Below, piece after piece: positions 1,725-38,677 of a DNA stretch of 44,893 bases (the stretch's first letter is position 1; each line of letters opens with the position of its first letter). The notes below the pieces were generated by a model that saw nothing but the letters and a program-made list of their open reading frames with translations, did not search any database and was not told the DNA's origin. This DNA comes from a virus. Lineage: Duplodnaviria; Heunggongvirae; Uroviricota; Caudoviricetes. A program made the translations under genes and the position numbers. The stretch spans positions 1 through 44,893 of IMG/VR virus record IMGVR_UViG_3300008261_001827. One strand, written 5' to 3'.

Positions 1725-1725
1725 T

Positions 1726-4406: not shown

Positions 4407-4430
4407 TGATAATTACAAAGGAGAAAATAA

Positions 4431-5072: not shown

Positions 5073-5073
5073 T

Positions 5074-7793: not shown

Positions 7794-9128
7794 ATGGCTA
7801 CGCAAGATGACATAAACAACTTTACTTCTAGTAATTCTGTCGGATGCTTTTTAAAGCTAGCAGCACAAACATACGTTGATACTACGAATAGAAGTATTTC
7901 TGTTGCGACCGTAGACGATCTTCCGGACTTAAGCGGTAATACTATTATACCAGGAACTATATTTTACGTTGAAAGTTTGGGTGTTCCAGTAATTGCGCAA
8001 GTCGGGTGCTGGAGCGGATTGGATAACCGTCAGTTAAGAAGCGATTTTAATACGAATTTAATTTACGCGTGGGGGTTTCCTACTTCAGGACGCCTAGGTG
8101 ATAATACTACTGTGTCTAAATCTTCTCCAGTGTTAGTCGCTGGAGGGTTTAATGACTGGCAAGCAGTAAGCGGCACTGGCTCGCATGCCTTAGGCATACG
8201 TTCTAATGGAATCGCTTGGGCTTGGGGTGCTGGTACTTCTGGAGAACTTGGTGATAATACAACAGTTGATAAATCTTCTCCAGTGTCAGTCGTTGGTGGC
8301 TTTACAGACTGGTGTCAAGTAAGCGGTGGTGGTGTTCACAGTTTGGGTATTCGTACTAATGGAACTGCATGGGGTTGGGGCGCAAACACTTTTGGCAATA
8401 TTGGTGATAACACCGGTGGTGGTAAATCTTCTCCTGTGTCAGTCGTAGGTGGCTTTACAGACTGGTGTCAAGTGAGCGCTGGGAACGCTCACAGTCTAGG
8501 TGTTCGTACTAATGGAACTGCATGGGGTTGGGGATGTAATACTGGCGGTGGACAACTTGGCGACAACACGACAGCGACTAAATCATCACCAGTATCGGTT
8601 GTTGGCGGCTTTACAGACTGGTGCCAAGTAAGTGCGTCGGTGCACAGTCTAGGTGTTCGCCAAAATGGCACCGCCTGGGCTTGGGGGGATGGAGCATGCG
8701 GGCGTCTTGGTGATTACACTACAGTTGCTAAATCTTCTCCAGTGTTAGTCGTCGGCGGGTTCACGGACTGGTGTCAAGTAAGCGCAGCAAGATGCCATAG
8801 TCTAGGTGTTCGACAGAACGGGACCGCTTGGGCTTGGGGTCTTGGAACTGACGGCCGTCTCGGTGACAACACTGTAGCTGCCAAATCTTCTCCAGTGTCA
8901 GTCGTCGGTGGCTTTACGAACTGGTGTCAGGTGGCTACAGGCTGCACCCACAGCATAGGTGTCCGACAGAACGGAACTGTCTGGTCTTGGGGTGACAACA
9001 CCTTTGGACAACTAGGTCACGGCACTTTGGTTGCTAGATCTTCTCCAGTGTCAGTTGCTGGTGGGTTAACCGGCTGGAGTCAAGTTAGCGCAGGCATAGT
9101 GTTCAGCACAGCCGTAAGAGCAGTATAG
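7794..9128 (+). CDS. RCC1-repeat beta-propeller protein 6
   Basis: Seven RCC1 repeats plus N-terminal domain. Confidence 0.92.
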   Translation: MATQDDINNFTSSNSVGCFLKLAAQTYVDTTNRSISVATVDDLPDLSGNTIIPGTIFYVESLGVPVIAQVGCWSGLDNRQLRSDFNTNLIYAWGFPTSGRLGDNTTVSKSSPVLVAGGFNDWQAVSGTGSHALGIRSNGIAWAWGAGTSGELGDNTTVDKSSPVSVVGGFTDWCQVSGGGVHSLGIRTNGTAWGWGANTFGNIGDNTGGGKSSPVSVVGGFTDWCQVSAGNAHSLGVRTNGTAWGWGCNTGGGQLGDNTTATKSSPVSVVGGFTDWCQVSASVHSLGVRQNGTAWAWGDGACGRLGDYTTVAKSSPVLVVGGFTDWCQVSAARCHSLGVRQNGTAWAWGLGTDGRLGDNTVAAKSSPVSVVGGFTNWCQVATGCTHSIGVRQNGTVWSWGDNTFGQLGHGTLVARSSPVSVAGGLTGWSQVSAGIVFSTAVRAV

Positions 9129-9144
9129 CATCATAGTTTTTTTG

Positions 9145-9152
9145 TATAAATA
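9145..9152 (+). promoter_or_regulatory. T4-type late promoter TATAAATA upstream of modification island 1
   Basis: Exact consensus in the intergenic gap 9129-9259. Confidence 0.75.
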
Positions 9153-9259
9153 GAGTAGAAGCTATTAAACTCATAGCGTCGCAAAAAGATCTTATATAAA
9201 ATTTTAGACTTTTTGAGTAATTTTAATATTACAAACTTTTAATATGAAAGGTGATTTAA

Positions 9260-9820
9260 ATGAAGATTAATCTTGGCGCTGGTGGAACGAAGCTCGATGG
9301 TTTTGTAACTCTAGATTACGACCCGCTTGAAAATCCAGACTATATCGTAGATCTGGAAAAAGACACACTGCCATTCGAAGATAGCACAGTTGAAGTTGTT
9401 ATCGCTCATCACATACTCGAACATCTTGGGCCTGGTTATTTCCATTGCCTTAAAGAAATCTATCGAGTCTGTAAGCATGGAGCGACGATAGACATTCGTG
9501 TTCCGCATCATCGGCACGACTACTTCTACGACGACCCAACACATCGTAGACCAATTACTGTTGGTGGTCTTCTTCTTTTTAGTAAGAAACATAATAAACT
9601 ATGCAGGGAACAAGGCGCTGCGTCAAGCAGACTCGGTGATTACTTTAAAGTTGACTTTGAGATCCTAGATTACAACTATATGCCATCTCAGCAATACCGA
9701 GATCAGTTTGTTGGTGAACCGAGAGATGTTGTTGAAAAGTATCTTCGCGAACACAATAACATTATTGAAGAACTCTGGGTGAATTTAGTGGTGATCAAAG
9801 ATGAACACGGCGGAAAATAA
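9260..9820 (+). CDS. Class I SAM-dependent methyltransferase (Methyltransf_11-like)
   Basis: INLGAGG motif I; LPFEDSTVEVVIAHHILEHL; EIYRVCKHG; DDPTHRR. Confidence 0.8.
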   Translation: MKINLGAGGTKLDGFVTLDYDPLENPDYIVDLEKDTLPFEDSTVEVVIAHHILEHLGPGYFHCLKEIYRVCKHGATIDIRVPHHRHDYFYDDPTHRRPITVGGLLLFSKKHNKLCREQGAASSRLGDYFKVDFEILDYNYMPSQQYRDQFVGEPRDVVEKYLREHNNIIEELWVNLVVIKDEHGGK

Positions 9821-11150
9821 ATTTAAGATAGAAGATCTAAAACCCGTTGTAATGGATCTTCTATCTCACGAAAAACGCGAAATCGTATTTGATATTCTTA
9901 ACATGTATTTTCAAAGAGCAGAGGGTATAGGGGACTTTGATGCTCTTGGATATCTGGCACTAAAAGCAGAACACCGCGATTTGTATCTGAAATGTGCAGA
10001 AGCTGCATATACGAAGGCCGAAAGTCCTCAACAACTATACATCGCCAGATCAAACCTCTATAAAGCATATAACGCAATGAATATGCCGGATGATGCTCTA
10101 TTCTATATTAATCTAAATCTGATGATCACGCCGGATGACTTTGAGACTCAGACTCAAAAAGCGTTTAATATCGCACTCAAGGGAGATAGAACGGCGTCAG
10201 AAAAGATACTGTTAGACTTACTTGAAAAACATCCAGAGAAGCGAGAGGACATGAGAAGTGCTCTGTCGGGTAAAACGCTTCGTGAAGGAAAACTTGCAGA
10301 GGGAGTCTTGTCGTTCCTTGGGACGTTTAAGCCAAAGAGTGGCAAGTTTGATGATGCTCTTAAGATGAAGCGGTGGACCGGAGCAATTCAACCAGGTAAG
10401 ACTGTCTATATAGAGGGAGAGGGAGGTATAGGTGACGAGATCATCAACATTCGCTTTTTCAAATATCTTAAAGACTTAGGAATGAGACCAATACTCTACT
10501 CGTCGTGGTCTAAGTATCGCGAAGACACCGTGAATATGTTTCGTAGAAATGGGTTTGAAGTAATAACTGAGTACTATTCAATTGATCGGACACAACTATG
10601 GGCACCGATGATGAGTCTTCCAGGGTATCTCAATCTCGACGAATCTAAATTGTGGTATGGTTCGTATCTTAAACCTTTGAATGATCCAAAGAATAAAATC
10701 AATAGCACTAAGTTTAAAATTGGTATCAAGTGTTCAGGAAATCCATACTTTTCGCAAGATGAGTATCGTAAGATACCAATCGAAAAGATGTTAGAATACT
10801 TACCAGAGAACGCAGAGATCTATTACATCGACAAGCAGCCAATAAATAATCCTAGAGTAATAGATCTATCGTCAAGAATAGAAACTTGGGAAGATACACT
10901 CGACTTTATTGAACAGATGGACTGTATCGTAAGTTCGTGCACGAGCTTGGTTCATGCCGCTGGCGCTATCGGAAAAACATCTTTTGTTGTAGTTCCAATT
11001 GCGGAGTATTACATTTGGTCTACTTCCAGTAAGACGTCAAAGTCTCCTTGGTATGGAGATAACTTTCAAGTACACAAACAGACTAAAGTTCGAAGCTGGG
11101 ACGAACCTCTGCAATGCGTAAATGAACAACTTTTGAAATTGATTGGATAA
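9801..11150 (+). CDS. TPR-containing GT-B glycosyltransferase (GT9-like C-terminus)
   Basis: Helical N-terminal repeats; EGEGGIGDEIINIRF and DCIVSSCTSLVHAAGAIGK match the EQGxGD / DLVISVDTxxxHLAGALG pattern. Confidence 0.75.
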   Translation: MNTAENKFKIEDLKPVVMDLLSHEKREIVFDILNMYFQRAEGIGDFDALGYLALKAEHRDLYLKCAEAAYTKAESPQQLYIARSNLYKAYNAMNMPDDALFYINLNLMITPDDFETQTQKAFNIALKGDRTASEKILLDLLEKHPEKREDMRSALSGKTLREGKLAEGVLSFLGTFKPKSGKFDDALKMKRWTGAIQPGKTVYIEGEGGIGDEIINIRFFKYLKDLGMRPILYSSWSKYREDTVNMFRRNGFEVITEYYSIDRTQLWAPMMSLPGYLNLDESKLWYGSYLKPLNDPKNKINSTKFKIGIKCSGNPYFSQDEYRKIPIEKMLEYLPENAEIYYIDKQPINNPRVIDLSSRIETWEDTLDFIEQMDCIVSSCTSLVHAAGAIGKTSFVVVPIAEYYIWSTSSKTSKSPWYGDNFQVHKQTKVRSWDEPLQCVNEQLLKLIG

Positions 11151-11152
11151 TT

Positions 11153-11929
11153 ATGAACAAAACATATCACTTCATAACAGGTCTGCCTCGGTCGGGTTCA
11201 ACTCTGTTATCATCTATACTTCGTCAGAACCCAAGGTTTCACGCTTCAATTACTGACCCACTGGCAAGTCTAGTTAAGGGAGTTATTGAACATAGTCAAG
11301 ACGCTCCTGGAATGAAATCTGAAGTTCCTGTTGAACGCAGAAAGAACCTTGTGCGGCATTTATTCGAAGGTTACTACGAAGACGTCGATAGGCCAGTAGT
11401 ATTCAATACAAATAGAGCATGGACATACCTAACAAATGTTACTCGTGATCTCTATCCAAAATCAAAATACATAGTTTGTGTAAGGGATTTGAATTGGGTA
11501 ATAGACAGCTTTGAGTCTGCCCATCGCAGAAATCCATTCTCCACAAACACGGTGACTGGTGGCGTAGGAAGTTCAGTGTATCAACGAGTAGATAGTCTTA
11601 TGAAGGAAGACGGGGTTGTAGGTTTTCCATACGTTGGAATTAAGCAGGCTCTTACTGGTCATGATCAGCCACTTCTGTTCTTATTAGAATACGACTTGTT
11701 GTGCAAGCAGCCAAAAGAAATGATGAAAGCTCTTTACAACTTCATAGAAGAACCTTATTTTGAACATGATTTTAATAATGTAGAAGCTTCTTGGGATGAG
11801 TACGACGCAGAGATTGGTATTAAACTTCACGACGTTCGTAAGAAAGTTGAATTCCGCGAAAGAAAGTTTATACTTCCACCAGATATCCTTAATAAGCACG
11901 CAAATATGGAATTTTGGCGACAACTATGA
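11153..11929 (+). CDS. PAPS-dependent sulfotransferase
   Basis: FITGLPRSGSTLL 5'-PSB loop; YIVCVRD..WVIDSF 3'-PB motif. Confidence 0.85.
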   Translation: MNKTYHFITGLPRSGSTLLSSILRQNPRFHASITDPLASLVKGVIEHSQDAPGMKSEVPVERRKNLVRHLFEGYYEDVDRPVVFNTNRAWTYLTNVTRDLYPKSKYIVCVRDLNWVIDSFESAHRRNPFSTNTVTGGVGSSVYQRVDSLMKEDGVVGFPYVGIKQALTGHDQPLLFLLEYDLLCKQPKEMMKALYNFIEEPYFEHDFNNVEASWDEYDAEIGIKLHDVRKKVEFRERKFILPPDILNKHANMEFWRQL

Positions 11930-12552
11930 CTATAATAAAAAGAGAAGATGGTTTATATTGGCCAGAAATCGATGTCGATTCTTGCTATACATGGACTAAT
12001 GTTGAATTATACACCGTAGATTCAATAGTAGGATCTCTTAAGAATAAGCGCACAATAATTCACGCGGGTGGAAACGTTGGAGCATACACTTTAAAATTTG
12101 CCGAAGCATTCGAGACAGTTTATGTGTTTGAACCGGATGTTACAAACTTCAAGTGTCTATGCATGAATACTGCAGATCATGAAAACGTATTTCAGTTTAG
12201 AGCAGCACTAGGTAGTAAGGCATCGCAAGTTTCTATCACTAATGACACTCCAGAAAATTGCGGTACGTTTCGTGTAAAGGAAGATGGAAACATTCCTGTA
12301 ATAACGATAGACAGTCTTGGATTGACAGACATAGATTGTATACATTTAGATGTTGAAGGTTACGAAATGAATGCATTACTCGGAGCAGAGAACACTATAA
12401 AACTGCATCGTCCATTAATTGTAGTAGAATGGCTGGATCACGGTAAAAATTATGGTTGGGATAAAAAAGATATTATGAACTTTCTGCTTGATATGGGATA
12501 TAATCAAATGAAACAAATCGGTTCTGATATGATGTTTAAAAATGAAAATTGA
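11926..12552 (+). CDS. FkbM-family methyltransferase
   Basis: IHAGGNVGAY, VFEPD..NF, IDCIHLDVEGYEMNALLGA; start moved to 11926 (ATGA overlap). Confidence 0.85.
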   Translation: MTIIKREDGLYWPEIDVDSCYTWTNVELYTVDSIVGSLKNKRTIIHAGGNVGAYTLKFAEAFETVYVFEPDVTNFKCLCMNTADHENVFQFRAALGSKASQVSITNDTPENCGTFRVKEDGNIPVITIDSLGLTDIDCIHLDVEGYEMNALLGAENTIKLHRPLIVVEWLDHGKNYGWDKKDIMNFLLDMGYNQMKQIGSDMMFKNEN

Positions 12553-13324
12553 TATATTTTTACGAACTTGCGACGTCACAAACGTTCATACTGATTGGCG
12601 AGTTAGATACCACGGAATTGAAAAATCAGATCTTATTGTAGGATGTGTATCATCTTTAGTAAACGCAATAAATAATACTAAAGGAATGGATATTAATCTG
12701 ACGGTTCTCGACGATCATTCTTCAGAAGATACGGTTCAAAGAATCAAAGAGATCATTCAGAAAGTAGAAAATTCTAAACTAATACAACTCGATCAAAGTG
12801 GATACAATCATTCTGCTCATCAGCAGTGGATCCTTTGTAGGGATAGCAATTCGGACTTAGTGTATTCTGTTGAAGACGACTATCTTCACTGCCCCTCGGC
12901 AATACAGGAAATGGTTGACTCGTTTTATATGTTTTGCGATAGATTGAAACGAGAAGACATAGTGATATATCCATTCGACGAGCCGTCTGAATACGATCCT
13001 CCTGCTAGAACAGACTTCATAGTCCATGGCTCTGCTCGTCACTGGAGAACTGGAATATTTACAACAAACGTCATGATGACTACTCCAAAAATGTTTCGTG
13101 ACAACTGGGAACTTTTCGAGGTTCTTGCTCTTAAGTATAACGGTGACTATCTTAATCCGAGAACGGAACACTACGAAGAGTCAAATACGATCTGGAAGAT
13201 ATGGCAGAGCAACAAAGCGATTAGATTCAATCCGATCCCAAGTCTTGCATTACATATGCAATTTGAGCAACAGAAAGATCCTTTTATAGAATGGCAACAA
13301 TGGTGGAAAGATTACGCAAAATGA
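12542..13324 (+). CDS. GT-A (GT2-like) glycosyltransferase
   Basis: LTVLDDHSS and VYSVEDDYLH motifs; paralog of 15877-16680. Confidence 0.7.
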   Translation: MKIDIFLRTCDVTNVHTDWRVRYHGIEKSDLIVGCVSSLVNAINNTKGMDINLTVLDDHSSEDTVQRIKEIIQKVENSKLIQLDQSGYNHSAHQQWILCRDSNSDLVYSVEDDYLHCPSAIQEMVDSFYMFCDRLKREDIVIYPFDEPSEYDPPARTDFIVHGSARHWRTGIFTTNVMMTTPKMFRDNWELFEVLALKYNGDYLNPRTEHYEESNTIWKIWQSNKAIRFNPIPSLALHMQFEQQKDPFIEWQQWWKDYAK

Positions 13325-14256
13325 ACACTACATTTATTATTAACGGCGGTGCAGGAAGAGTAATTGCAGCGATACCTGCATTAGAAAAATTTCATAGACT
13401 AAATCCAAAGAATGATTTTAGAGTAATCGTTCACGGGTGGCAAGACTTATATTGGAGCCATCCTATTCTTCAACCAAGAACGATAGGAATTCATCAAAAG
13501 AATATCTTTGAAGAGTACGTAAAGAATTATAATCTAGTGTGCCCAGAACCTTATTATATACACGACTACTACAATCAAAAGATATCACTAGCTGAAGCAT
13601 TTGACCGTCAAATAAATAATACGACGGATCATAAGGATCTCGAAAAGCCTAACCTATACATCAGCACCTATGAGCGTACATCTGTTCAGAGAATTGTTGA
13701 AGAGTTTAAGCAGATACATAAGAAGAATAAAGTAGTGGTATTTCAGCCTTATGGAAGTACTATGACGATTTCAAACAATAGACCATACGATATTTCAAAC
13801 AGAAGTTTAGATGTCGATGACTACTTAAAGATCGGAAAGTTTTTAAACGATAAAGACTGTCTAATCTTCTTCTTTGGTAACAGAGAACTCAAACATCCTG
13901 GAGATAACTTTAGCGCGGATCTAACTAACTTTAATCCTGAACTAAGAATGTACATGGCTCTAATAAGCGAGTGTGATTATTTCGTAGGATGCGATAGCGT
14001 AGGTCAACATATGGCTAGAGCTTTTGATAAACCCGGATCTGTGTTTATGGGTAGTACGTTTGAAAAGAACGTAAGTTATCCTGACCATTTTAAATTCTTT
14101 AGAAAACAGGGACAAGATCCAGTTTACAGTCCGATTCGCCTTGGTGGAGTAGAATCGGACTTCACGGACAGATTGAATGACGGAATCATGAATTTTTCTG
14201 CGAACGAAATTAACGAGTCCTGCCAAGTAATACTTAAAGACATATATGACGAATAA
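13321..14256 (+). CDS. GT9-like (heptosyltransferase-like) glycosyltransferase
   Basis: GGAGRVIAAIPAL, VVFQPYGS, CDYFVGCDSVGQHMARAFDKP; start 13321 by ATGA overlap. Confidence 0.72.
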   Translation: MNTTFIINGGAGRVIAAIPALEKFHRLNPKNDFRVIVHGWQDLYWSHPILQPRTIGIHQKNIFEEYVKNYNLVCPEPYYIHDYYNQKISLAEAFDRQINNTTDHKDLEKPNLYISTYERTSVQRIVEEFKQIHKKNKVVVFQPYGSTMTISNNRPYDISNRSLDVDDYLKIGKFLNDKDCLIFFFGNRELKHPGDNFSADLTNFNPELRMYMALISECDYFVGCDSVGQHMARAFDKPGSVFMGSTFEKNVSYPDHFKFFRKQGQDPVYSPIRLGGVESDFTDRLNDGIMNFSANEINESCQVILKDIYDE

Positions 14257-14267
14257 TTGGAGAATCT

Positions 14268-14813
14268 ATGAGTAACACAAATTTTTCTGTAAATCGTTCT
14301 GTAATTAATTATATCCACGCAAGAGACTACTTTCCGAAAGATGAAGTAGAACAACTTCGGCCTCTTGTGCAAGATGTGCATTGGGTAGATAAAAAGTTTG
14401 GTAAAGAGATGGAGCATTTCAATCTCATCTTCAACGACATCGATCTTGTAATCGGTAAGATGGTTGGCGACATAGTTGAGATAGATAGAGCAGCGTCAGG
14501 AACCCTTCGTAGAACAATACACGAAGTAATACACTTCGAAGATTTTGCAGACTTAAACGACTGGAGATTCGTCGTTTCACTCGAAGAAAATGAATTTAAG
14601 ACATATATACACAAAGATGGATATAAGAGTGTTCTTGATTTTATTAAAGATGAAGAGAGTCAAGATAAAGAACTCGACTATCTTAATAATGACGAATGGG
14701 AAGTAGAGACATCAATAAAAATGAAACCAAACGATGTCTTATTCTATCGCCCATGGATCTTTCATTCATTTCAAGACGGCATACTTCACTACTACAAATT
14801 AAAAGTATTGTAA
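14268..14813 (+). CDS. Hypothetical protein, possible DUF6445/2OG-Fe(II) oxygenase-like fold
   Basis: IHARDYFP start, VIHFED, and KPNDVLFYRPWIFHSF resemble double-stranded beta-helix oxygenases. Confidence 0.5.
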   Translation: MSNTNFSVNRSVINYIHARDYFPKDEVEQLRPLVQDVHWVDKKFGKEMEHFNLIFNDIDLVIGKMVGDIVEIDRAASGTLRRTIHEVIHFEDFADLNDWRFVVSLEENEFKTYIHKDGYKSVLDFIKDEESQDKELDYLNNDEWEVETSIKMKPNDVLFYRPWIFHSFQDGILHYYKLKVL

Positions 14814-14820
14814 GTGCATA

Positions 14821-15492
14821 ATGTCTATTAACGTTTATGTGGTTACTTCAACTATAGTTACAGGAATTGGCCACATAGATCCGCAGACTAGATTTTATGA
14901 AACTATCGAAACAATTAAGAGTATAAGAAAACAAGACAAAGATTCATATGTTATATTAATAGATAACTCTTTGTCTAAGTTGCCGGATGCTGAAGAGAAT
15001 TTAATATCGAGTATGGCTGACTATTACCTATACGTCGGAGATAGAAAGCAATGTATAGAATTCAACAAGAACGGAGTTCGTTCTGCCGGCGAAGCGTTTA
15101 TTCTTTTAGTATCCTTTGATGTTATTCGTAACGAAATTAGAAACGAAGTAAATAGAATATTCAAGGTGTCCGGAAGATACAGACTTACAGAAAGTTTTGA
15201 TCCGTTAGAGTACGACTCATTCAAAGGAAAATACTGTTTTAAGTCAAGAGAAGAAAACATGAGACACGATGAAACCGCGTGTTTCTTACATACACGCCTT
15301 TGGTCCTTTTGTTACACTTTATTAGATGACGCTAATGACTTATTAAGAAAGTCTCTTAAGACGATTTTTGAAAAAAATGTTAACATAGAAGAAGCCATGT
15401 TCGTTAACATAAATAAAAACTTGATAGCAGAAAAAGATATATTGCATTGTGAAGGTATGCTTGCTATGTGGAATGAAAAGGTATCAGAATGA
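14821..15492 (+). CDS. Hypothetical protein, possibly glycosyltransferase-related
   Basis: R..ETIETIKSIR, ILIDNS, RIFKVSGRY motifs recur in proteins of phage glycan islands; function uncertain. Confidence 0.55.
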   Translation: MSINVYVVTSTIVTGIGHIDPQTRFYETIETIKSIRKQDKDSYVILIDNSLSKLPDAEENLISSMADYYLYVGDRKQCIEFNKNGVRSAGEAFILLVSFDVIRNEIRNEVNRIFKVSGRYRLTESFDPLEYDSFKGKYCFKSREENMRHDETACFLHTRLWSFCYTLLDDANDLLRKSLKTIFEKNVNIEEAMFVNINKNLIAEKDILHCEGMLAMWNEKVSE

Positions 15493-15908
15493 AAGTATTC
15501 ATAAACGGAACTTTTGATATACTGCATCCTGGTCACATGCGGCTTATCACTTTTGCCTCAAACTACGGAGACTATCTAAAGATCGGCATAGACTCAGATA
15601 GTAGAGTTAAAAAACTAAAGGGCGCATCTCGACCAATCAATAACCAAGATACGAGAGCAACTATGCTTTTTCATGTGAAAGGCGTTGACGAAATTTCTAT
15701 CTTTGACAGTGAAGAAGAACTGATAAATATTATCAGAGAGTATGAACCGGACTATATGGTTGTCGGTTCTGACTACAGAAATAAAAAAGTGATAGGCAGC
15801 GAGTATGCAAAGAAACTGATATTCTTTGATAGAATAGAAGAATACTCTTCGACTCGAGTGATAGAAAAGATAAGAGATGAACGTACACTATGCGCTGCAA
15901 ACTTGTGA
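15489..15908 (+). CDS. rfaE2: D-glycero-beta-D-manno-heptose 1-phosphate adenylyltransferase (HldE C-terminal domain, stand-alone)
   Basis: NGTFDILHPGH, IDSDSRVKKLKGASRPIN, PDYMVVGSDY, SSTRVIEKI align with the HldE C-domain. Confidence 0.85.
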   Translation: MKVFINGTFDILHPGHMRLITFASNYGDYLKIGIDSDSRVKKLKGASRPINNQDTRATMLFHVKGVDEISIFDSEEELINIIREYEPDYMVVGSDYRNKKVIGSEYAKKLIFFDRIEEYSSTRVIEKIRDERTLCAANL

Positions 15909-16680
15909 TATCGCGTCAAACCAGGTAACCAAGAGATACTGCTGTGACACGAAACACGAGCTTATTCGAAAGTGCGTGTCTTCTTTCTTTCAATCAGTTC
16001 ACGAAGCAGCCAAAAGAGATAGATCTATTAATCATCGCATAGCAATATTCGACGATCATTCTACGCAAGAAACAGTTTACTTTATTCAAGAATGTGTTAA
16101 AATATATTCAAAAGAAAACGTTCAGGTTGAGCTGTATCATCTAGAAAACTTAGGCATAATGAATTCGATCCGCTCTTGCTACGAATGGCTATTGAGTAAT
16201 GGAACGGATTTAGTATACCAAGTTCAAGACGATTATCTTTTTGAAAAATCTGCGATAACCGAGGTCATTGATACATACTTTAGGATGCTGATTGAGACAA
16301 ACACGCAACCAATCGTAACACCCTATAATGCGCCGTATCTTTGGTCTGCCGTATATCGAAACAGTACTACTCCGAGAACGATCTTTATGGGAGAGAAGAG
16401 ATACTGGATTCAGATATACGACGTGTCTTGTTCGTTTTTAACGAGTCATCAAAATTTCATAAATAATAGTGATATACTCGAGAAGTTCTTAAATCTGGAT
16501 CCTCGAGATCCTGAACTTGAAAAGATCTCTCTCAATAAGATAATGGTAGAAAGAGGTTGTCTCGCAGTATGTCCGTTTGAAAGCATTGCTCTGCATATGC
16601 AAGGTGAATACGAGCGTGATCCGTATGTTGATTGGAAATTATTATGGGACTCTATAGATGAAGATATTATTACTAGGTGA
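15877..16680 (+). CDS. GT-A (GT2-like) glycosyltransferase
   Basis: IAIFDDHST, VYQVQDDYLF, SIALHMQ...DPYVDW; paralog of 12542-13324. Confidence 0.7.
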   Translation: MNVHYALQTCDIASNQVTKRYCCDTKHELIRKCVSSFFQSVHEAAKRDRSINHRIAIFDDHSTQETVYFIQECVKIYSKENVQVELYHLENLGIMNSIRSCYEWLLSNGTDLVYQVQDDYLFEKSAITEVIDTYFRMLIETNTQPIVTPYNAPYLWSAVYRNSTTPRTIFMGEKRYWIQIYDVSCSFLTSHQNFINNSDILEKFLNLDPRDPELEKISLNKIMVERGCLAVCPFESIALHMQGEYERDPYVDWKLLWDSIDEDIITR

Positions 16681-17401
16681 CAGCTGTTATGATTACTATC
16701 ACTACGGTGAAGTAAACCGTATTAGTCCAGAAGCTCCTATTCCGATCTTTGATCACGTATACACCAAGAAGAAACTTGGCATGATGTCAAACGTTCTTGA
16801 GAACTTTCGTTCTCTTGGAGTAAATCCTGACTATCAGACGTATTTCTTTGAGAATAAGAATCGTTATATAGATGTAAAATCAAAACAACAGTTGCTTCGT
16901 GTAGATCAAAGGATTGAAGAAGAGGGTATTGATACTATCATATATGATGGCGTTCAGTTTAATGAATACGATGCAATCGTTATCTCTGACTATGATAAGG
17001 GATTCGTTAGTTATGACGACATTAAGCGGATACGTCAAGAGTTCAAAGGTCCTGTCTTTATAGATACCAAAAAGAAGTACCTCGCAGATATAGGCAACTG
17101 CTTTGTTAAGATTAACCAATACGAACACAAGAACTTAATTTCAGAGCCAAAACCAGAAAACCTTATCGTCACTCGCGGCGATGATGGCGCGGTATGGAAT
17201 AATGTATTATACTTCTCACCAAGAGTAGAAGCACATGATGTATGCGGCGCCGGAGACACATTCCTTGCAGCCCTCGTGTTTGAATACCTTCGTAAGGACT
17301 GCGATATGGAATCGGCAATATTATTCGCAATGAAAGCAGCGGCAGTTACTGTTCAGAAGATCGGTGTATATGCGCCAACTTTAAAAGAGATAGAAGGATA
17401 A
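16658..17401 (+). CDS. rfaE1: Heptose 7-phosphate kinase (HldE N-terminal PfkB domain, stand-alone)
   Basis: GD...D.Y.YG...RISPEAPIP, QQLLRVD, VISDYDKG, DVCGAGDTF. Confidence 0.88.
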   Translation: MKILLLGDSCYDYYHYGEVNRISPEAPIPIFDHVYTKKKLGMMSNVLENFRSLGVNPDYQTYFFENKNRYIDVKSKQQLLRVDQRIEEEGIDTIIYDGVQFNEYDAIVISDYDKGFVSYDDIKRIRQEFKGPVFIDTKKKYLADIGNCFVKINQYEHKNLISEPKPENLIVTRGDDGAVWNNVLYFSPRVEAHDVCGAGDTFLAALVFEYLRKDCDMESAILFAMKAAAVTVQKIGVYAPTLKEIEG

Positions 17402-17407
17402 CATATA

Positions 17408-18046
17408 ATGCGTTATAATGTGATTAATCATTTAGCCGCGGCTTACTATGACAATAATTGTTCATATCTTGAGATTGGAGTAGAGCACCCCGAAAATTGT
17501 TTTAATCTCATAAACGCATCGAAAAAATGTTCTGTCGATCCGCAAAAGACAAGACCAGAAGTTCATATTGACTATCAAATGACTTCTGACGAATTCTTTG
17601 AGAAGTTGCGTAATAAGAAGACTGAGTTTGAACCCGATCACAAGTGGGACATCATCTTTATAGACGGCCTTCACTTAGCAGATCAAGTATATCGTGACAT
17701 ACAAAATGCGATTAATCACTGTAAAGGATTTGTAGTTTTACACGACTGTGGTCCAGAAAATTTTTATAATGCGCATTCTGACTATAAATTTTTCAAAGAA
17801 AACGGCGGAGCGTGGTGTGGAACCACATGGAAAGCTTTCTATAAGTTTAGGACTGAAACATACCTAAAGACTTATACCGTCGACATAGATTATGGAATTG
17901 GAGTCATAGAGATGAACTCTGAGGGAACACCAATAAAGCTAGATAATCCGTGGTTTGAATATGGAAAGTTTAAAAACAACATGACTCTAGACTTAGGCTT
18001 AATTACACCTATTCAATTTATAAATGATCATCCTATTAAGGAGTAG
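17408..18046 (+). CDS. Class I SAM methyltransferase (Methyltransf_24-like)
   Basis: YLEIGV, DIIFIDGLHLADQVYRDI, VVLHDC, GTTWKA. Confidence 0.8.
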   Translation: MRYNVINHLAAAYYDNNCSYLEIGVEHPENCFNLINASKKCSVDPQKTRPEVHIDYQMTSDEFFEKLRNKKTEFEPDHKWDIIFIDGLHLADQVYRDIQNAINHCKGFVVLHDCGPENFYNAHSDYKFFKENGGAWCGTTWKAFYKFRTETYLKTYTVDIDYGIGVIEMNSEGTPIKLDNPWFEYGKFKNNMTLDLGLITPIQFINDHPIKE

Positions 18047-18050
18047 TGAA

Positions 18051-18422
18051 ATGACAAGACTTAACGGATTTGTAGAAAAGGGTTGGGGCCACGAACTTAT
18101 TTGGGCCACTAACGATAAGTATTGTGGAAAGCTTCTAAACTTTAATGCTGGCGCAAAGTTTTCAATGCATTTTCACAGAGAAAAAGACGAGACTTGGTAT
18201 GTGCTATCTGGAGAATTTATAGTTCATTGGATAGATACAGAAAACGCTAAGAGACATTCTTTAGTACTTACTACCGGATCAACTTGGAGAAATACACCGC
18301 TTCAACCCCATCAGATAGAATGTCTCCAAGAAGGTACTATTATTGAAGTTTCAACGCCGGATTCTGTAGAGGATAATTACAGAATAATGCCGGGCGACAG
18401 TCAAAAGGAAGTTACATTATGA
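18051..18422 (+). CDS. Cupin-fold protein (sugar isomerase-like)
   Basis: KGWGHELIW, FSMHFHREKDETWYVLSG, PLQPHQI; AAGGAG RBS supports start 18051. Confidence 0.78.
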   Translation: MTRLNGFVEKGWGHELIWATNDKYCGKLLNFNAGAKFSMHFHREKDETWYVLSGEFIVHWIDTENAKRHSLVLTTGSTWRNTPLQPHQIECLQEGTIIEVSTPDSVEDNYRIMPGDSQKEVTL

Positions 18423-19444
18423 AAAGAATATTGATTACTGGCGGAGCCGGATTTATTGCTCACCACCTAGTATGTAAAGTGCTCAGAGAGACAGACTGGG
18501 AGATCGTTACTCTCGATAGATTGGACTACAGCGGCAATCTTAATCGCCTCCACGACTCACTACAAGAGTTCGACAGTGAAACGCGCAAGAGAGTAAGCGT
18601 GGTGTTTCACGACCTTAAAGCTGATATGAACCCGCTCGTTCGTTCAGAAGTAGGAACTGTAAACTACATCGCTCACCTCGCGGCAGGATCGCACGTGGAT
18701 CGTTCAATCGACTATCCGATGGAGTTCGTTCTCGATAACGTAGTTGGAACGTGTAATATACTCGAGTTTGCAAGATCGCAGAAGAGTAACCTTGAGAGAT
18801 TTATATACTTCAGTACGGATGAAGTCTTTGGTCCTGCGCCTGATGGAATTAAGTATGGTGAAAACGATCGCTATAACTCTACTAATCCTTATAGTGCGTC
18901 AAAAGCAGGCGGAGAAGAACTTGCCGTTGCGTATGAGAACACATACGGTCTTCCGATCTATATCACTCATACCATGAATGTCTTCGGTCAGAGACAACAT
19001 CCAGAGAAGTACATACCAATGTGCATTAAGCGAGCTCGTGATGGTGAGAAGATTACAATCCACAGCGATAGAACAAAAACGATCCCAGGATCCCGTCACT
19101 ATATTCATGCAGAAGACGTTGCTGACGCTGTTCTATTCCTTCTTAAGAACCAATTCGATTTAAAGACAGAATGGGGTGGAGCTAAGTGTCCTAAATTTAA
19201 CATCGTCGGCGCAGAAGAGATCAATAACTATGAACTCGCAAAGATCATTGCCGATGCACAGGGTAAGGAACTCAACTACGAGTTTGTTGACTTCCACTCG
19301 AGCCGCCCAGGTCACGACCTTCGTTATGCTCTAGATGGAAGCAAGATGAAGAATCTTGGATGGGAACCTGCTACATCAGTTCGTGAGAGAATTGCAGAAG
19401 TAGTGAAGTGGACTCTAGAAAATGAGAGATGGCTAAAGACATGA
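18419..19444 (+). CDS. rfbB: dTDP-glucose 4,6-dehydratase-like extended SDR
   Basis: TGGAGFIA, HLAAGSHVDRSI, STDEVFG, YSASK, RPGHDLRYALD. Confidence 0.82.
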   Translation: MKRILITGGAGFIAHHLVCKVLRETDWEIVTLDRLDYSGNLNRLHDSLQEFDSETRKRVSVVFHDLKADMNPLVRSEVGTVNYIAHLAAGSHVDRSIDYPMEFVLDNVVGTCNILEFARSQKSNLERFIYFSTDEVFGPAPDGIKYGENDRYNSTNPYSASKAGGEELAVAYENTYGLPIYITHTMNVFGQRQHPEKYIPMCIKRARDGEKITIHSDRTKTIPGSRHYIHAEDVADAVLFLLKNQFDLKTEWGGAKCPKFNIVGAEEINNYELAKIIADAQGKELNYEFVDFHSSRPGHDLRYALDGSKMKNLGWEPATSVRERIAEVVKWTLENERWLKT

Positions 19445-20229
19445 AAGTACTCGTTACAGGAACAAACGGATTTATAGGTCAGAACCTAATCAAAAAATTA
19501 CCATCTGATTGGGAGTTGGTTAAGTTTGATATTAAGGACTATCCAGACACGCGTCCAAAGTATCTAGATTTTAGCAATCTTGACTGGGTAATCCACCTCG
19601 GAGCTCTAAGCTCAACCACTGAGAAGGATGCTAGAAGAGTGATGGACCTAAACCTTGCGTGGTCCATCGAACTCGCAGAAGAATGCGAGAAACATAATGT
19701 GAATTTGCAATGGTCTTCGTCCGCATCTGTCTACGGAAACAAGTATAAGTGTCCGGTTGACGAGAGCAAAACTGTGTATCCTCTCAATCTATACGCAATG
19801 AGTAAGTATTTCTTCGAAGAGTATATGAGATCAAAAGCTCATAAATTTATATGGCAAGGATTTCGTTACTTCAATGTATACGGCCCGTGCGAAGATCATA
19901 AAGGATCTCAGGCCAGTCCGTATAATCAATTCGCGAGACAAGCTCGCGAGACTGGCGTCATTCGAGTGTTTGAAGGTTCTGAAAACTATAAGAGAGACTT
20001 CATACACGTTGATCGTGTAGTAGACGTACATCTTAAAATGATTGAGAAGAAAGAGAGTGGTATCTTTAACCTAGGCTCAGGATCTACTCGCAGCTTTCTT
20101 GACGTTGCGAGAGACGTCGCTCTTATGTACAATGCTAGTATAGAGACAATACCATTTCCTGATCATCTGAGATCTCACTATCAGGAGTATACTCATGCGG
20201 ACATGTACAAATTAAATATGCTTCTCTAA
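19441..20229 (+). CDS. hldD: ADP-L-glycero-D-manno-heptose 6-epimerase
   Basis: HLGALSSTTE, PLNLYAMSK, GFRYFNVYGP..HKGS.AS, FEGSENYKRDF, SGIFNLGSG, IPFPD closely follow HldD/RfaD. Confidence 0.9.
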   Translation: MKVLVTGTNGFIGQNLIKKLPSDWELVKFDIKDYPDTRPKYLDFSNLDWVIHLGALSSTTEKDARRVMDLNLAWSIELAEECEKHNVNLQWSSSASVYGNKYKCPVDESKTVYPLNLYAMSKYFFEEYMRSKAHKFIWQGFRYFNVYGPCEDHKGSQASPYNQFARQARETGVIRVFEGSENYKRDFIHVDRVVDVHLKMIEKKESGIFNLGSGSTRSFLDVARDVALMYNASIETIPFPDHLRSHYQEYTHADMYKLNMLL

Positions 20230-20256
20230 TTCTATTATCCTTATCCGATAAATCTC

Positions 20257-20284
20257 ATTATATCTGAATTATTGAAAATGTCAA
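20257..20284 (-). promoter_or_regulatory. Sigma70-type promoter TTGACA-N16-TATAAT, antisense to island 1
   Basis: + strand attata (20257-62), 16 nt, tgtcaa (20279-84); no ORF with RBS downstream on the minus strand. Confidence 0.7.
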
Positions 20285-20295: not shown

Positions 20296-20339
20296 GGCAT
20301 ACACTCTTTTATAAATAGAAACAAAAAAGAGTGTATGCC
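20296..20339 (+). promoter_or_regulatory. Late promoter TATAAATA (20310-20317) at the loop of a perfect 15-bp inverted repeat
   Basis: ggcatacactctttt (20296-20310) and aaaagagtgtatgcc (20325-20339); 3' arm ends just before ATG 20342. Confidence 0.8.
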
Positions 20340-20341
20340 AA

Positions 20342-20680
20342 ATGACGACTATAGCAAACCTATACGTAGACCAAGGCGTCGATTATTCGATTGACCTATT
20401 TCTCACCACAACCGCCGGTGAAGAGTATGACGCTTCGAATAAATCATTTTACTGTAACATAAAGAAATTATATTCTTCTTCAATTTCCGCAAACGCTGAG
20501 ATCGCTAGTTTTCTTAGCGCGAATACTGGTATGATAGAATTATACATTTCACCAGAAACATCCGAAGCTCTCGATCCTGGTAAGTATACATATGATATAA
20601 TCATGATGAGTCAAGGCGGAACTCGAGTTAAAGTTTTAGAAGGTCTTATGTTTATCTTGCCAACGGTCACAAGGGTATAA
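20342..20680 (+). CDS. Small virion structural protein (T4-like phage conserved)
   Basis: MxxIANLYVDQG...GKYTYDI...KVLEG...PTVT pattern common in T4-like phage structural modules. Confidence 0.7.
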   Translation: MTTIANLYVDQGVDYSIDLFLTTTAGEEYDASNKSFYCNIKKLYSSSISANAEIASFLSANTGMIELYISPETSEALDPGKYTYDIIMMSQGGTRVKVLEGLMFILPTVTRV

Positions 20681-20683
20681 GAC

Positions 20684-20929
20684 ATGTCGGAAACGGTAAG
20701 AGTTACGGTTGGAAGTGAAAGACTAAGAGTTAATGCCGTTGTTGGCAACGAAAAACCTAGAGTTTTTACAAACCAGACAAACTTAATAGTAAGAAGACTT
20801 AGAGATCTGGCAGATGTAGATATGAATACAAATGCTGACGGTTCTATTTTGGTTTACGACTCTGCTTTACAGAAATTTATCGCAACAACAACACTCAGCG
20901 AGCAGGTCATAGATGGCGGCACCTACTGA
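20684..20929 (+). CDS. Small hypothetical fibre-associated protein
   Basis: LRDLADVD...DGSILVYD...KF and C-terminal IDGGTY motif. Confidence 0.65.
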   Translation: MSETVRVTVGSERLRVNAVVGNEKPRVFTNQTNLIVRRLRDLADVDMNTNADGSILVYDSALQKFIATTTLSEQVIDGGTY

Positions 20930-20932
20930 GTA

Positions 20933-20940
20933 AATAAATA
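20933..20940 (+). promoter_or_regulatory. Possible late promoter variant (AATAAATA)
   Basis: Intergenic taaataaata upstream of 20977. Confidence 0.35.
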
Positions 20941-20976
20941 AAGAAAACGACCACATAAAAAGAGTCGAAGAACAAC

Positions 20977-22599
20977 ATGGCCGCTATAATAAAGCATAAA
21001 AGAAGCTCTATTTCAGATAGAGTCCCAACAGTATCGGATCTTGAACTAGGTGAACTCGCCATCAACACCTATGATGGCAACATTTTCTTAAAGAGAAACC
21101 AGGATGGTGATGAAGCCATCATAACGTTTCTTGCTAGCAATCCTGTAAGAAATGTTGTTTACGTTCAAAAGAACGGTGATGATACGAACAGCGGAACATC
21201 TTGGGACGGCGCGTATGCCACAATAGAGAAGGCGCTCGAAGACGCGGCAGACAGAGAAGAAGAAGAAGTCACTCTTATTGAAATAGGCCCAGGCAGGTAT
21301 ACGACACAGGGTCATTTAGATGTGCCAGACAATGTTGTTATTCGAGCAGCTCATAGAAGCGCATTCATAAGCCCTGTCACCGGGTATGAAGAAAGAAACG
21401 TGTTCCGCCTAGGTTCTGGTTGCTTTGTTGAAGGTTTAGTATTCGACAATTGGCGTCTTGATAGTTTGGATAATCCAACAGAAGGTTTTGCGTTCTGTTT
21501 TAGACCAGGTGCAGTAATTCGTAGAGCGCCATACGTTCATAAGGTTGTAGTTAGAACAACTCCATTCTGGGATACTGTTGCGCCACCTTTGGACAGAGAT
21601 AATGCAAATCCACTTATTGGTAGGGGTGCCGGTGTTATTATAGCCGATGGGTCCGTATGTTCAGCATATAGTATCTACCCAAACATTATGGCTTGGGGCG
21701 CTACACCAGTCTCTCATAATGGTATTGGGTATGTCGCAAGGAACGGTGGACTCATTAATGCTGTTAATGCAGTTAGTATGTGGGCACACAAACATTTTCT
21801 TGCTCTTGATGGCGGGCAAATTATTTTATCTTCTTGCTCTACTCAATTCGGCGACTATACTATGGTCGCGGACGGATCAAGAAACATCGTTGTTCCTACA
21901 GAAGTAGCAGAGGGATCATTATCAATACAGACAGCTGCATCAAATGCCGTCTCTGCGGCTAGAACAACAATTATAAATGCTACTTGGAATAATCTCGTGT
22001 CTGGTGGATACACTAACGGGTGGACTGCACAGGACGAAGAATTTATCAGAAGAGAAGCTGCCGCATTTCTTCAGTCAATTGTGTGGGTTCTGCAGACTGC
22101 GAATGAAAAACCAATGCTAGATTTTGCAAAAGGTCTGTTTGATACTATCGGCGAAAAGGTGTATGCAGAGTCAAAAGAAAACGCAATTATACACTCGTTC
22201 GAGTTTATGAGAAACACTATTATTGCATTAGCAAACGTTAATTCTGCTTCAGACACGATAGTAACTAACCTGGTCTCTGCATTAATAGACACGATCGAAG
22301 ATACGAATAGAGTTTCCGAGCCTTCTACGATCACGGCGATAGGCCACACATGGACAGCACTCATGGCCGGTGTCGCGCTAACAAAAATACCACCTGCTAG
22401 AAATTTTGCGACCATCGAAGAAAGTATACTCGAGTTAAATAATGGCATAGTCATTGCGTCTGGCCAAGACGATCAAGGATCGGCTCTCTTCATTGGTGGC
22501 ATGAAGATCGATGCAGATACTGGCGAACTTACGGGTCCTCCATTTGAACAATCAGTTAATAGAATTGCAACTAGAGCAGCAATCGCAAGGAGTTTTTAA
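20977..22599 (+). CDS. Fibre/spike protein with Mtd-N-like head and probable beta-helix domain
   Basis: IKHKRSS...VPTVSDLELGELAINTYDGNIF N-terminus; VYVQKNGDDTNSG.SW..AYATIEKAL is a pectin-lyase-like entry motif. Confidence 0.65.
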   Translation: MAAIIKHKRSSISDRVPTVSDLELGELAINTYDGNIFLKRNQDGDEAIITFLASNPVRNVVYVQKNGDDTNSGTSWDGAYATIEKALEDAADREEEEVTLIEIGPGRYTTQGHLDVPDNVVIRAAHRSAFISPVTGYEERNVFRLGSGCFVEGLVFDNWRLDSLDNPTEGFAFCFRPGAVIRRAPYVHKVVVRTTPFWDTVAPPLDRDNANPLIGRGAGVIIADGSVCSAYSIYPNIMAWGATPVSHNGIGYVARNGGLINAVNAVSMWAHKHFLALDGGQIILSSCSTQFGDYTMVADGSRNIVVPTEVAEGSLSIQTAASNAVSAARTTIINATWNNLVSGGYTNGWTAQDEEFIRREAAAFLQSIVWVLQTANEKPMLDFAKGLFDTIGEKVYAESKENAIIHSFEFMRNTIIALANVNSASDTIVTNLVSALIDTIEDTNRVSEPSTITAIGHTWTALMAGVALTKIPPARNFATIEESILELNNGIVIASGQDDQGSALFIGGMKIDADTGELTGPPFEQSVNRIATRAAIARSF

Positions 22600-22601
22600 T
22601 C

Positions 22602-23066: not shown

Positions 23067-23071
23067 GTTAG

Positions 23072-28560: not shown

Positions 28561-28570
28561 AGGAAAAATT

Positions 28571-31480: not shown

Positions 31481-31491
31481 GGGATTAAAAT

Positions 31492-32996: not shown

Positions 32997-32997
32997 T

Positions 32998-34599: not shown

Positions 34600-34600
34600 T

Positions 34601-36336: not shown

Positions 36337-36358
36337 TAATTTGAGAGGTACAAATAAT

Positions 36359-37942: not shown

Positions 37943-37944
37943 AG

Positions 37945-38676: not shown

Positions 38677-38677
38677 A

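Follow-up and report, generated by a model that had tools for sequence, protein, structure and literature searches.

Chloroviruses and mimiviruses make their own glycans, in which methylated and unusual sugars occur. Virion glycosylation is also known in mycobacteriophages, where capsid and tail-tube subunits carry glycans (Freeman 2023, as cited in PMC12619734). In Caulobacter crescentus, FlmG (P21296, entered as 'FlbA') is the founding member of the cytoplasmic flagellin O-glycosyltransferases; its tetratricopeptide repeat (TPR) domain binds the flagellins, which the enzyme O-glycosylates in the cytoplasm (PMC7591256). Sugar-gene clusters of aquatic T4-like phages have been called phage lipopolysaccharide (LPS) genes since 2005, with no experiment behind that reading. 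Such clusters are located where abundant cyano- and pelagimyophages encode host recognition, and they have been read for about twenty years as tools directed at host LPS. Here, a homologous cluster was analysed in a stretch of 44,893 nt (the window), the first 44.9 kb of a 111-kb viral contig in IMG/VR (IMGVR_UViG_3300008261_001827) with an estimated completeness of ~53% and a source sample labelled lake water. The cluster, termed glycan island 1, lies at 9260-20229.

The island was judged, with slightly better than even confidence, to be a cytoplasmic protein-glycosylation kit for the phage's own fibre or RCC1 propeller proteins. This reading was based on the FlmG-class architecture of one glycosyltransferase (GT), on a virus-restricted and fibre-embedded family of GT9-fold enzymes, on the lack of any export or lipid-carrier component, and on the pattern of donor supply across phages. 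It would probably act on the RCC1 propellers, whose genes lie upstream, on the Thr/Ser-rich fibres, whose genes lie downstream, or on both groups.

The original prediction had described an operon-like run of 16 genes. The tight packing was evident, with all genes on the + strand and either overlapping or spaced by ≤11 nt, but 15 open reading frames (ORFs) were counted. These encode a split HldE, an HldD-like epimerase, a cupin, an RmlB-like dehydratase, five glycosyltransferases, three methyltransferases and one sulfotransferase. The dehydratase (18419), the cupin (18024), the sulfotransferase (11153) and the methyltransferases (9260, 11914 and 17408) had been omitted from the earlier list. 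Products are referred to below by the start coordinate of their gene.

9260..9820, + strand: S-adenosylmethionine-dependent methyltransferase (Methyltransf_11; Pfam PF08241, 28.1 bits, cut-off 21.2)
9801..11150, + strand: TPR + GT-B glycosyltransferase of FlmG/OGT architecture, 449 aa (structure model and structure matches)
11153..11929, + strand: sulfotransferase (Pfam Sulfotransfer_3, E 6.8e-13, 49.8 bits, cut-off 27)
11914..12552, + strand: FkbM-family methyltransferase (TIGR01444, 72.6 bits, cut-off 37.7; Pfam PF05050)
12542..13324, + strand: GT2-like (GT-A) glycosyltransferase (Pfam PF00535, E 7.8e-5, 23.1 bits, cut-off 23.3)
13291..14256, + strand: GT9-fold glycosyltransferase, 321 aa (phrog_8954, E 2e-81; structure model)
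14268..14813, + strand: 181-aa protein, often adjoining the GT9-fold gene in relatives, with homologues in 11 loci
14821..15492, + strand: GT-A fold glycosyltransferase (Atlas model, template modelling (TM) score 0.65-0.72 to GT2, GT8 and GT6 clusters)
15489..15908, + strand: heptose-1-phosphate adenylyltransferase, HldE domain II/HldC type (TIGR02199, Pfam)
15877..16680, + strand: GT2-like glycosyltransferase (language-model features only; PF00535 in 13-49% of the members of the top clusters)
16658..17401, + strand: heptose-7-phosphate kinase, HldE domain I/HldA type, short 247-aa phage form (TIGR02198, PDB)
17408..18046, + strand: methyltransferase, Methyltransf_24-like (Pfam PF13578, E 2.8e-5, 25.4 bits, cut-off 26.3)
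18024..18422, + strand: metal-binding cupin (Pfam Cupin_2 above cut-off; weak matches to mannose-6-phosphate isomerase and WbuC)
18419..19444, + strand: NDP-hexose 4,6-dehydratase, RmlB type (TIGR01181, E 1.5e-76)
19429..20229, + strand: ADP-glycero-manno-heptose 6-epimerase, HldD type, short 266-aa phage form (TIGR02197)

Both GT2-like enzymes named in the original prediction were recovered, 12542 through Pfam GT2 and 15877 by language-model features, and a third GT-A enzyme was added at 14821. The 14268 protein gave no match in Pfam, NCBIfam or PHROG; from its sequence it appears to carry HxE/D...H-like motifs. A second glycan island, at 31932-39424, follows the fibre genes, so that sugar genes stand on both flanks of the latter.

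None of the 15 products of the first island has a membrane segment (highest 19-residue Kyte-Doolittle mean <1.6), and a 19-residue hydrophobic window of ≥1.6 was likewise absent from all products of 31932-39424. Pfam and NCBIfam scans of both islands returned no priming or lipid-carrier transferase, flippase, ABC transporter, polymerase, ligase or chain-length regulator.

The AlphaFold2 (AF2) model of 9801 (predicted local distance difference test score, pLDDT, 88.5) consists of helical repeats at residues 10-186 followed by a Rossmann-type domain pair. Its best match among the Swiss-Prot models was Caulobacter FlbA (P21296, 596 aa) with E 9.5e-16 and TM 0.66 over residues 15-446 at 15% identity. 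The top PDB matches were SPINDLY, XcOGT, TtOGT and human OGT, and GT9 enzymes matched the transferase half only. Its Atlas neighbours were TPR + GT9 proteins. A GIGD motif in 9801 was invariant. With an N-terminal TPR region (~1-190), a C-terminal GT-B domain and a soluble product free of membrane segments, 9801 has the FlmG-class architecture. FlbA and FlmG are of the same organism and the same length (596 aa), and the FlmG paper cites a flbA-flaG study as earlier work on the flmG gene (PMC7591256). 9801 is predicted to start glycosylation on a protein.

The likeness to FlmG extends to gene context: flmG lies beside a sugar-supply pathway and six flagellin genes, and 9801 beside a sugar-supply pathway and six genes for RCC1 paralogues. 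The two differ in that 9801 is shorter (449 compared to 596 aa) and only 15% identical, and its putative acceptor is a phage protein. FlmG transfers pseudaminic acid, whereas no nonulosonate pathway turned up on this contig; a scan with Pfam and NCBIfam that covered both islands, but not the remainder of the contig, returned no NeuB/PseI-type gene.

The presence of two heptosyltransferases in the island is unlikely, as 9801 has no Asp aligning with WaaC D261 and resembles an enzyme that uses a CMP-nonulosonate donor. Profile alignment of 9801 by hhalign gave a probability of 0.4% against WaaC/WaaF and 6% against the family of 13291, values too weak for residue-level claims beyond a shared C-terminal motif. 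The description of both proteins as GT9-like was kept in part: 13291 has the GT9 fold, whereas 9801 is a TPR + GT-B protein with a GT domain that resembles GT9.

For 13291 (AF2 model, pLDDT 88.4), the top 30 Foldseek matches were all GT9 (E 1e-9 to 2e-6). The VIA Z scores were 23.8 for 3tov, a Veillonella GT9, 22.1 for WaaF, 20.9 for TibC and 19.5 for WaaC (PDB 2gt1 and 1psw for WaaC/WaaF; 4rap and 4rb4 for TibC/AAH). GT9-like subunits of chloroplast NDH scored 18-19 and the next unrelated family, the UDP-GlcNAc 2-epimerases, ≤11.8. At the sequence level, 13291 is 12-16% identical to solved GT9 enzymes (~12-15% to WaaC/WaaF), and its match to Pfam PF01075 covered only the C-terminal part, with 17.7 bits (cut-off 22; E 2e-3). 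A homologue from a Vibrio phage passes PF01075 at 24.5 bits. The profile of the 13291 family retrieved WaaF from the PDB at no better than E 0.92.

When the family was aligned with WaaC by hhalign, R171, D235 and H240, all invariant, were placed opposite the donor-side residues K192, D261 and H266, respectively. In the same alignment, GAGRVIAAIPAL was paired with SMGDVLHTLPAL, which puts the invariant R23 opposite WaaC D13, the catalytic Asp after strand 1; the probability of this alignment was only 51%, although the motif register was clear. A conserved Cys cluster for an iron finger is a feature of the BAHT enzymes. No invariant Cys was present in a 23-sequence alignment of the 13291 family, only C234 being nearly so, and the BAHT model (TIGR04414) gave no hit in the NCBIfam scan at E ≤0.01, which listed only TIGR04372 and RfaQ. 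Because of the sub-threshold sequence match, the Arg in place of Asp, the missing BAHT hit and the missing Cys cluster, 13291 is set apart as a GT9-fold, virus-specific sister family that belongs to neither GT9 nor BAHT. It was designated a putative heptosyltransferase with a non-canonical catalytic site. The analogy drawn earlier with TibC/AAH is thus confined to the fold, and in structure 13291 is no nearer to TibC than to WaaF.

The distribution of the GT9-fold family was also distinctive. More than 1,600 relatives were found in metagenomic proteins and at least 583 IMG/VR stretches were confirmed, compared to only 12 contigs among cellular genomes (185,579 species, each represented by a single genome). 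These 12 were without exception contigs of metagenome-assembled genomes (L089-L100), with bins that included a Methanobacteriota archaeon, Neomarinimicrobiota and Chitinophagales. Homologues of fibre or heptose-module genes were present on 7/12 of them and a clear cellular context on 0/12; the 12 probably derive from phages and were placed in cellular bins. The family is essentially confined to viruses, a distribution unlike that of an LPS gene captured recently from a host.

Gene neighbourhood was examined in 80 IMG/VR loci. The GT9-fold gene lay among fibre genes or in a hypervariable region, and in ~30 loci gp13-gp15 were found downstream of it. It occurs in phages of Prochlorococcus, Synechococcus, Vibrio and Aeromonas. 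A core module of GT9-fold gene, adenylyltransferase, kinase, cupin and epimerase was found in P-SSM2, Sf-FS3 and S-SSM7 at 35-45% identity, between the fibre genes and gp13. The 'LPS' or 'cell-wall synthesis and modification' clusters of cyanomyophages (P-SSM2, S-SSM7, S-CAM1/3 and Sf-FS3) thus share with the island both the core module and the place before gp13, and the pelagimyophage 'host recognition cluster' is a further likeness (PMC1079782, PMC7029224, PMC12801897). Here, however, the carbamoyltransferases and 2-oxoglutarate (2OG) oxygenases of the cyanophage clusters are replaced by a sulfotransferase, methyltransferases, extra glycosyltransferases, an RmlB-type dehydratase and the FlmG-class enzyme, and a small 'phosphoheptose isomerase' gene is missing. 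In the unrelated 78-kb Vibrio phage D505, the GT9-fold gene is flanked by the genes of two giant structural proteins, one of 2109 aa and the other, a tail protein, of 1756 aa, and its surroundings contain no heptose genes.

Among cultured cyanophage records with the GT9-fold gene, every one had an HldD-type gene a few kb away, and the 31 Vibrio phage records with this gene were absent from the HldD hits. Vibrio hosts make ADP-heptose. In marine Synechococcus, the LPS contains neither heptose nor ketodeoxyoctulosonate (Kdo) (PMC4515613). The pattern fits phages that bring the donor where the host cannot supply ADP-heptose. Together with the heptose-free Synechococcus LPS, it argues for ADP-heptose as the donor of the GT9-fold enzyme and against a canonical LPS core as its acceptor.

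The sugar-supply enzymes matched the expected families in shortened, phage-type forms. For kinase, adenylyltransferase and epimerase, the TIGR models were the best match of each, but all scores were below the NCBIfam equivalog cut-offs. Kinase 16658 matched TIGR02198 (E 1e-33, 116.7 bits, cut-off 345). Its best PDB relative was HldA 4e84 (E 6e-14), and the alignment of the two brings together their GD..D.Y..G.V.RISPEAP and GAGDT motifs. Adenylyltransferase 15489 matched TIGR02199 (E 5.6e-31, 107 bits, cut-off 181.5) and Pfam CTP_transf_like (E 9e-19), and was 40-43% identical to its homologues in P-SSM2, Sf-FS3 and S-SSM7. Epimerase 19429 matched TIGR02197 (E 5.8e-68, 229 bits, cut-off 274.6) and shares 42% of its residues with HldD of E. 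coli; in the PLNxYxxSK segment, Tyr and Lys were invariant over five aligned sequences, and a loop of ~15 aa was missing, as it is in the cyanophage homologues. The HldE kinase, HldE adenylyltransferase and HldD assignments made earlier were confirmed by these matches.

The complete ADP-heptose pathway was recovered only in part, with the HldA, HldC and HldD types present and GmhA and GmhB not found on the 53%-complete contig. No SIS_2 match to indicate GmhA was obtained on the 111-kb contig and no SIS hit among the island proteins; Pfam and NCBIfam gave no HAD hit to indicate GmhB among the island proteins, and 14268 does not have a DxDGT start. The isomerase and phosphatase genes may lie elsewhere, or the host may supply these functions. 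Cupin 18024 is the best-conserved protein of the heptose module, at 69-73% identity in most of the related loci that carry the module (homologues in L010, L039, L042, L053, L058 and L064), compared to 31-57% for the kinase, adenylyltransferase and epimerase in the same loci. It has an HxH..E..H metal-site motif and is possibly a sugar(-phosphate) isomerase or epimerase that could replace the missing GmhA. Dehydratase 18419 matched dTDP-glucose 4,6-dehydratases in the PDB at E 1e-52 to 1e-37, compared to E 7e-21 for the GDP-heptose 4,6-dehydratase 7us5. A role as heptose 4,6-dehydratase was rejected, the RmlB types being far closer; by its sequence relationships, 18419 represents a second sugar branch (6-deoxyhexose) and not HldD.

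The genes around the island were then considered as sources of the acceptor. On the + strand, the RCC1 array (375-9128) is followed by TATAAATA at 9145, glycan island 1, TATAAATA at 20310, the fibre genes (20342-31857), glycan island 2 and TATAAATA at 39512. Downstream of the last are gp13, gp14, a gp9/10-like gene, gp15, gp16 and gp17, and the replication genes are on the minus-strand half of the contig, distant from the island. The features flanking the island were as follows.

375..9128, + strand: six RCC1 seven-blade propeller paralogues, ~450 aa each (Pfam RCC1/WD40_RLD, E 7.5e-75; PHROG matches)
4431-5072, + strand: tail-fibre-like gene, 213 aa, within the RCC1 array (PHROG)
20310..31857, + strand: next late operon, TATAAATA at 20310 and fibre genes, candidate acceptors (motif, PHROG)
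23072-28174, + strand: 1700-aa fibre with 972 residues in Gly-X-Y triplets (GTQ, GTT, GSQ, GLQ, GEQ) and 23% Ser+Thr
within 20310..31857, + strand: 969-aa structural protein of the fibre operon
31932..39424, + strand: glycan island 2, ending just before TATAAATA at 39512 and gp13 (domain scans)
31932, + strand: weakly GH130-like protein
32983, + strand: uncharacterised 538-aa protein

The second island also encodes one Methyltransf_24 protein and two FkbM methyltransferases, together with two fusions, one of GT17-like and DUF6445/2OG-oxygenase-like parts, the other of a cytidylyltransferase-like part and a mannose-6-phosphate-isomerase-type cupin. The flanks were as first described: six RCC1 paralogues upstream and, downstream, fibre genes with a Ser+Thr content of 14-25%, which exceeds 20% in most of the larger ones. 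Identity of the major capsid protein was 65-66% to the Sinorhizobium phiM12-type and Methylophilales Melnitz phages and 61% to cyanomyophages, and no psbA was found on the 111-kb contig. Given this capsid relatedness and the lack of psbA, the phage is an uncultured T4-like aquatic myophage with no host assigned. Megablast of the island against GenBank phages gave zero matches.

The RCC1 paralogues are 50-60% identical to each other by alignment. Across related loci, the RCC1 array and the TPR transferase were found together in 13/13 loci and were both lacking from 32/32. The linkage persisted down to 27% identity of the TPR transferase, and in some loci the two kinds of gene were interleaved. 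The propellers are regarded as candidate acceptors or partners of the TPR glycosyltransferase. A predicted complex of 9801 with one RCC1 paralogue scored 0.03 and 0.00, which gives no verdict either way. An N-glycosylation sequon in the propellers was considered and rejected: N-G-T was present in 30/42 blades, but DGT or DGS took its place in more distant arrays linked to the TPR transferase. The Asn-Gly-Thr at the hairpin turn of the RCC1 blade is probably a structural turn and not a conserved sequon.

The promoters relevant to the timing of the island were as follows.

9145-9152, + strand: T4-type late promoter motif TATAAATA heading the island (exact match)
20257..20284, - strand: perfect sigma70 consensus TTGACA-N16-TATAAT, antisense into the 3' end of island 1 (12/12 matches)
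39459-39486, - strand: twin perfect sigma70 consensus TTGACA-N16-TATAAT, antisense into the 3' end of island 2
L025, gap 5109-5311, sense: perfect sigma70-type promoter TTGACA-N17-TATAAT in a relative
L007, gap 5692-5894, sense: near-perfect sigma70-type promoter TTGATT-N17-TATAAT in a relative

The exact late promoter reported earlier at 9145 was thus verified. It lies 108 nt ahead of the first gene, a longer leader than for most other intergenic copies. The window contains 4 copies of TATAAATA compared to ~3 expected by chance, a count that is uninformative alone. Only three intergenic gaps in the window exceed 100 nt (9129-9259, 20230-20341 and 39425-39543), and each holds one copy. Over the whole contig, 9/16 copies are intergenic, though intergenic DNA makes up 4.4% of the 111 kb, and most of these nine precede a structural gene by ≤~50 nt, among them those of the sheath and of the major capsid protein (53905). 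Based on this intergenic placement ahead of structural genes, TATAAATA is the late promoter of this phage. A gene for gp33 was not found by BLAST on the incomplete contig, and gp55 was not searched for. Three small lake-water metatranscriptomes of the same sample or study contained next to no sequence words from this DNA.

An exact TATAAATA also heads the homologous runs of the cyanophages P-SSM2, Sf-FS3 and S-SSM7. In the nearest relatives, with a GT9-fold protein 72% identical, the junction between RCC1 genes and island carries the sense sigma70-type promoter and no TATAAATA. The timing of the island may differ between close relatives. Because of the sigma70-type promoter at the same junction, late timing is a property of this phage and not a conserved argument, and the late timing given earlier holds here and in the three cyanophages.

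Each antisense sigma70 promoter shares a short gap with the late promoter of the next operon. Early 'anti-late' RNA is known for T4, and these promoters may give such RNA. A 14-bp perfect inverted repeat (GGCATACACTCTTT / AAAGAGTGTATGCC) at 20297-20341 was also observed; it brackets the TATAAATA at 20310, and its 3' arm stops right at the start codon of gene 20342.

If the island serves to glycosylate the phage's own proteins, the following sequence can be postulated. The HldA-type kinase, HldC-type adenylyltransferase and HldD-type epimerase would make ADP-heptose, a chemistry deduced from their family assignments; the cupin might act as an isomerase, and the host or off-contig genes would provide isomerase and phosphatase steps. 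The RmlB-type dehydratase would open a second, 6-deoxyhexose branch. The TPR domain of the FlmG-class enzyme would bind a folded or nascent structural protein, and the first sugar would be placed on Ser/Thr. The GT9-fold enzyme would then add heptose and the three GT-A enzymes more sugars, before three methyltransferases and the sulfotransferase finished the glycan. With the operon read from a late promoter in this phage, as the structural genes are, enzymes and targets would be made simultaneously. The glycan could be a shield, a fibre stabiliser or part of host recognition. The idea in common with mycobacteriophages and giant viruses is that of virus-encoded cytoplasmic transferases building glycans on structural proteins. 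Those cases were shown by mass spectrometry, whereas this island is known from genes alone, and the enzymes, the sugars (heptose, sulfate) and the proposed targets (T4-like fibres or propellers) are different.

Several observations weigh against glycosylation of the phage's own proteins. Heptose genes were present in only 20/50 related loci with adequate flanks, and the link between RCC1 genes and the TPR transferase is confined to one clade (all 13 loci), hence to few independent events. The sigma70-type head in the nearest relatives means that timing is not consistently tied to virion assembly. With an invariant Arg at the site of the WaaC catalytic Asp, the chemistry of 13291 may differ from heptosyl transfer to a hydroxyl. 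Collagen-type repeats (an ORF with ≥8 consecutive Gly-X-Y) occurred in only 5/96 GT9-fold loci, and the idea that they are the partner conserved with the GT9-fold enzyme was rejected on this count; for the 1700-aa fibre, nearly all BLAST hits were to the C-terminal part outside the collagen repeats, chiefly to the final 130 residues. In this phage, the collagen-like fibre may be an acceptor. Finally, we infer the acceptor, the glycan and its purpose alike.

LPS cores, too, are assembled at the inner membrane face by soluble enzymes of the GT9, GT2 and GT-A kinds, and solubility would be compatible with a lipid-linked acceptor that host machinery exports. The substrates of the enzymes could accordingly be lipid-linked intermediates of host LPS, O-antigen or capsule at the cytoplasmic face, with the altered glycan exported by the host and the infected cell or its debris escaping recognition by this phage, by competing phages or by grazers. 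This is the published reading of P-SSM2 and of the cyano- and pelagimyophage clusters (PMC1079782, PMC2984593, PMC7029224, PMC12801897), and loci for LPS and O-antigen typically encode GT9, HldE/HldD, RmlB and GT2 proteins as well as sulfotransferases and methyltransferases of the FkbM family. The sense sigma70-type promoter of the nearest relatives would permit the early expression needed for exclusion, and late expression could still mask receptors on debris. In this phage, however, the island has no promoter at its head other than the late one, and it is faced by an early-type promoter in antisense. The flippase, polymerase, ligase, chain-length regulator and lipid-carrier priming transferase of such a route are lacking, as is any membrane segment. 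The GT9-fold family is virus-restricted and distant from WaaC/WaaF, yet conserved across hosts with very different envelopes, among them marine Synechococcus, in whose LPS a WaaC-type reaction would find no core of Kdo or heptose. The best-resolved transferase, moreover, resembles a glycosyltransferase for protein and not for lipid acceptors. The preference for decoration of virion proteins expressed in the original prediction was retained on indirect support from the FlmG/OGT-type enzyme, the virus-confined GT9-fold family in fibre modules and the lack of membrane parts, while action on the host surface was considered rather unlikely but still the holder of a real minority share.

Two further explanations concern other acceptors. 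The closest characterised relative of 9801 glycosylates flagellins, and a TPR glycosyltransferase of Synechococcus elongatus is reportedly needed for pilin glycosylation (bioRxiv 10.1101/2021.07.06.449578). The FlmG-class enzyme might by analogy modify a receptor appendage of the host (flagellin, pilin or S-layer), which would block superinfection or change host behaviour. This appears improbable given that the TPR transferase is persistently linked to, and sometimes interleaved with, phage RCC1 genes and that the island lies among late structural genes; with the host unassigned, no target can be named. Phage glycosyltransferases are also often DNA-modifying, as in T4, where GT-B and GT-A glucosyltransferases glycosylate modified bases against restriction, and such a function has been proposed for cyanophage glycosyltransferases (PMC12801897; Pyle 2024, as cited in PMC12619734). 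Of all the readings, this has the slightest chance. No enzyme that hydroxymethylates or hydroxylates a base or nucleotide was found in the island by the Pfam and NCBIfam scans, the island shares its strand with the late structural genes and is distant from the minus-strand replication genes, and five transferases with sulfation and three methylations far exceed the needs of any known DNA glycan. The TPR domain, in addition, points to a protein partner.

Beyond this phage, it can be proposed, tentatively and at somewhat less than even confidence, that the 'LPS gene' clusters of aquatic T4-like phages are virion-glycosylation systems. FlmG-class and GT9-fold enzymes would build a methylated, sulfated, heptose-containing O-glycan on RCC1 or fibre proteins, with ADP-heptose supplied by the phage if the host lacks it, and the glycan would aid host recognition or fibre protection. 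If true, widespread aquatic T4-like phages would be added to the mycobacteriophages and giant viruses as users of virion glycosylation, the modifications known to be made by viruses would come to include heptosylation and sulfation of proteins, and host-range models built on bare protein fibres would need to be revisited. The module is carried by the cultured phages P-SSM2, S-SSM7, Sf-FS3 and S-CAM1 and by Vibrio phage D505.

Two minor observations were made on the related loci. The cyanophage genes annotated as 'phosphoheptose isomerase' (~110 aa; L001:14312-14656, L002:19812-20138 and L003:22720-23055) gave no Pfam hit at E ≤0.01, including none to an SIS domain, and have no homologue on this contig; judged by sequence, the annotation looks unsupported. 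The last ~130 residues of the 1700-aa Gly-X-Y fibre, which we take to resemble a fibre-folding (chaperone-type) domain, recur in otherwise unrelated fibre genes of more than 12 related loci at 35-52% identity.

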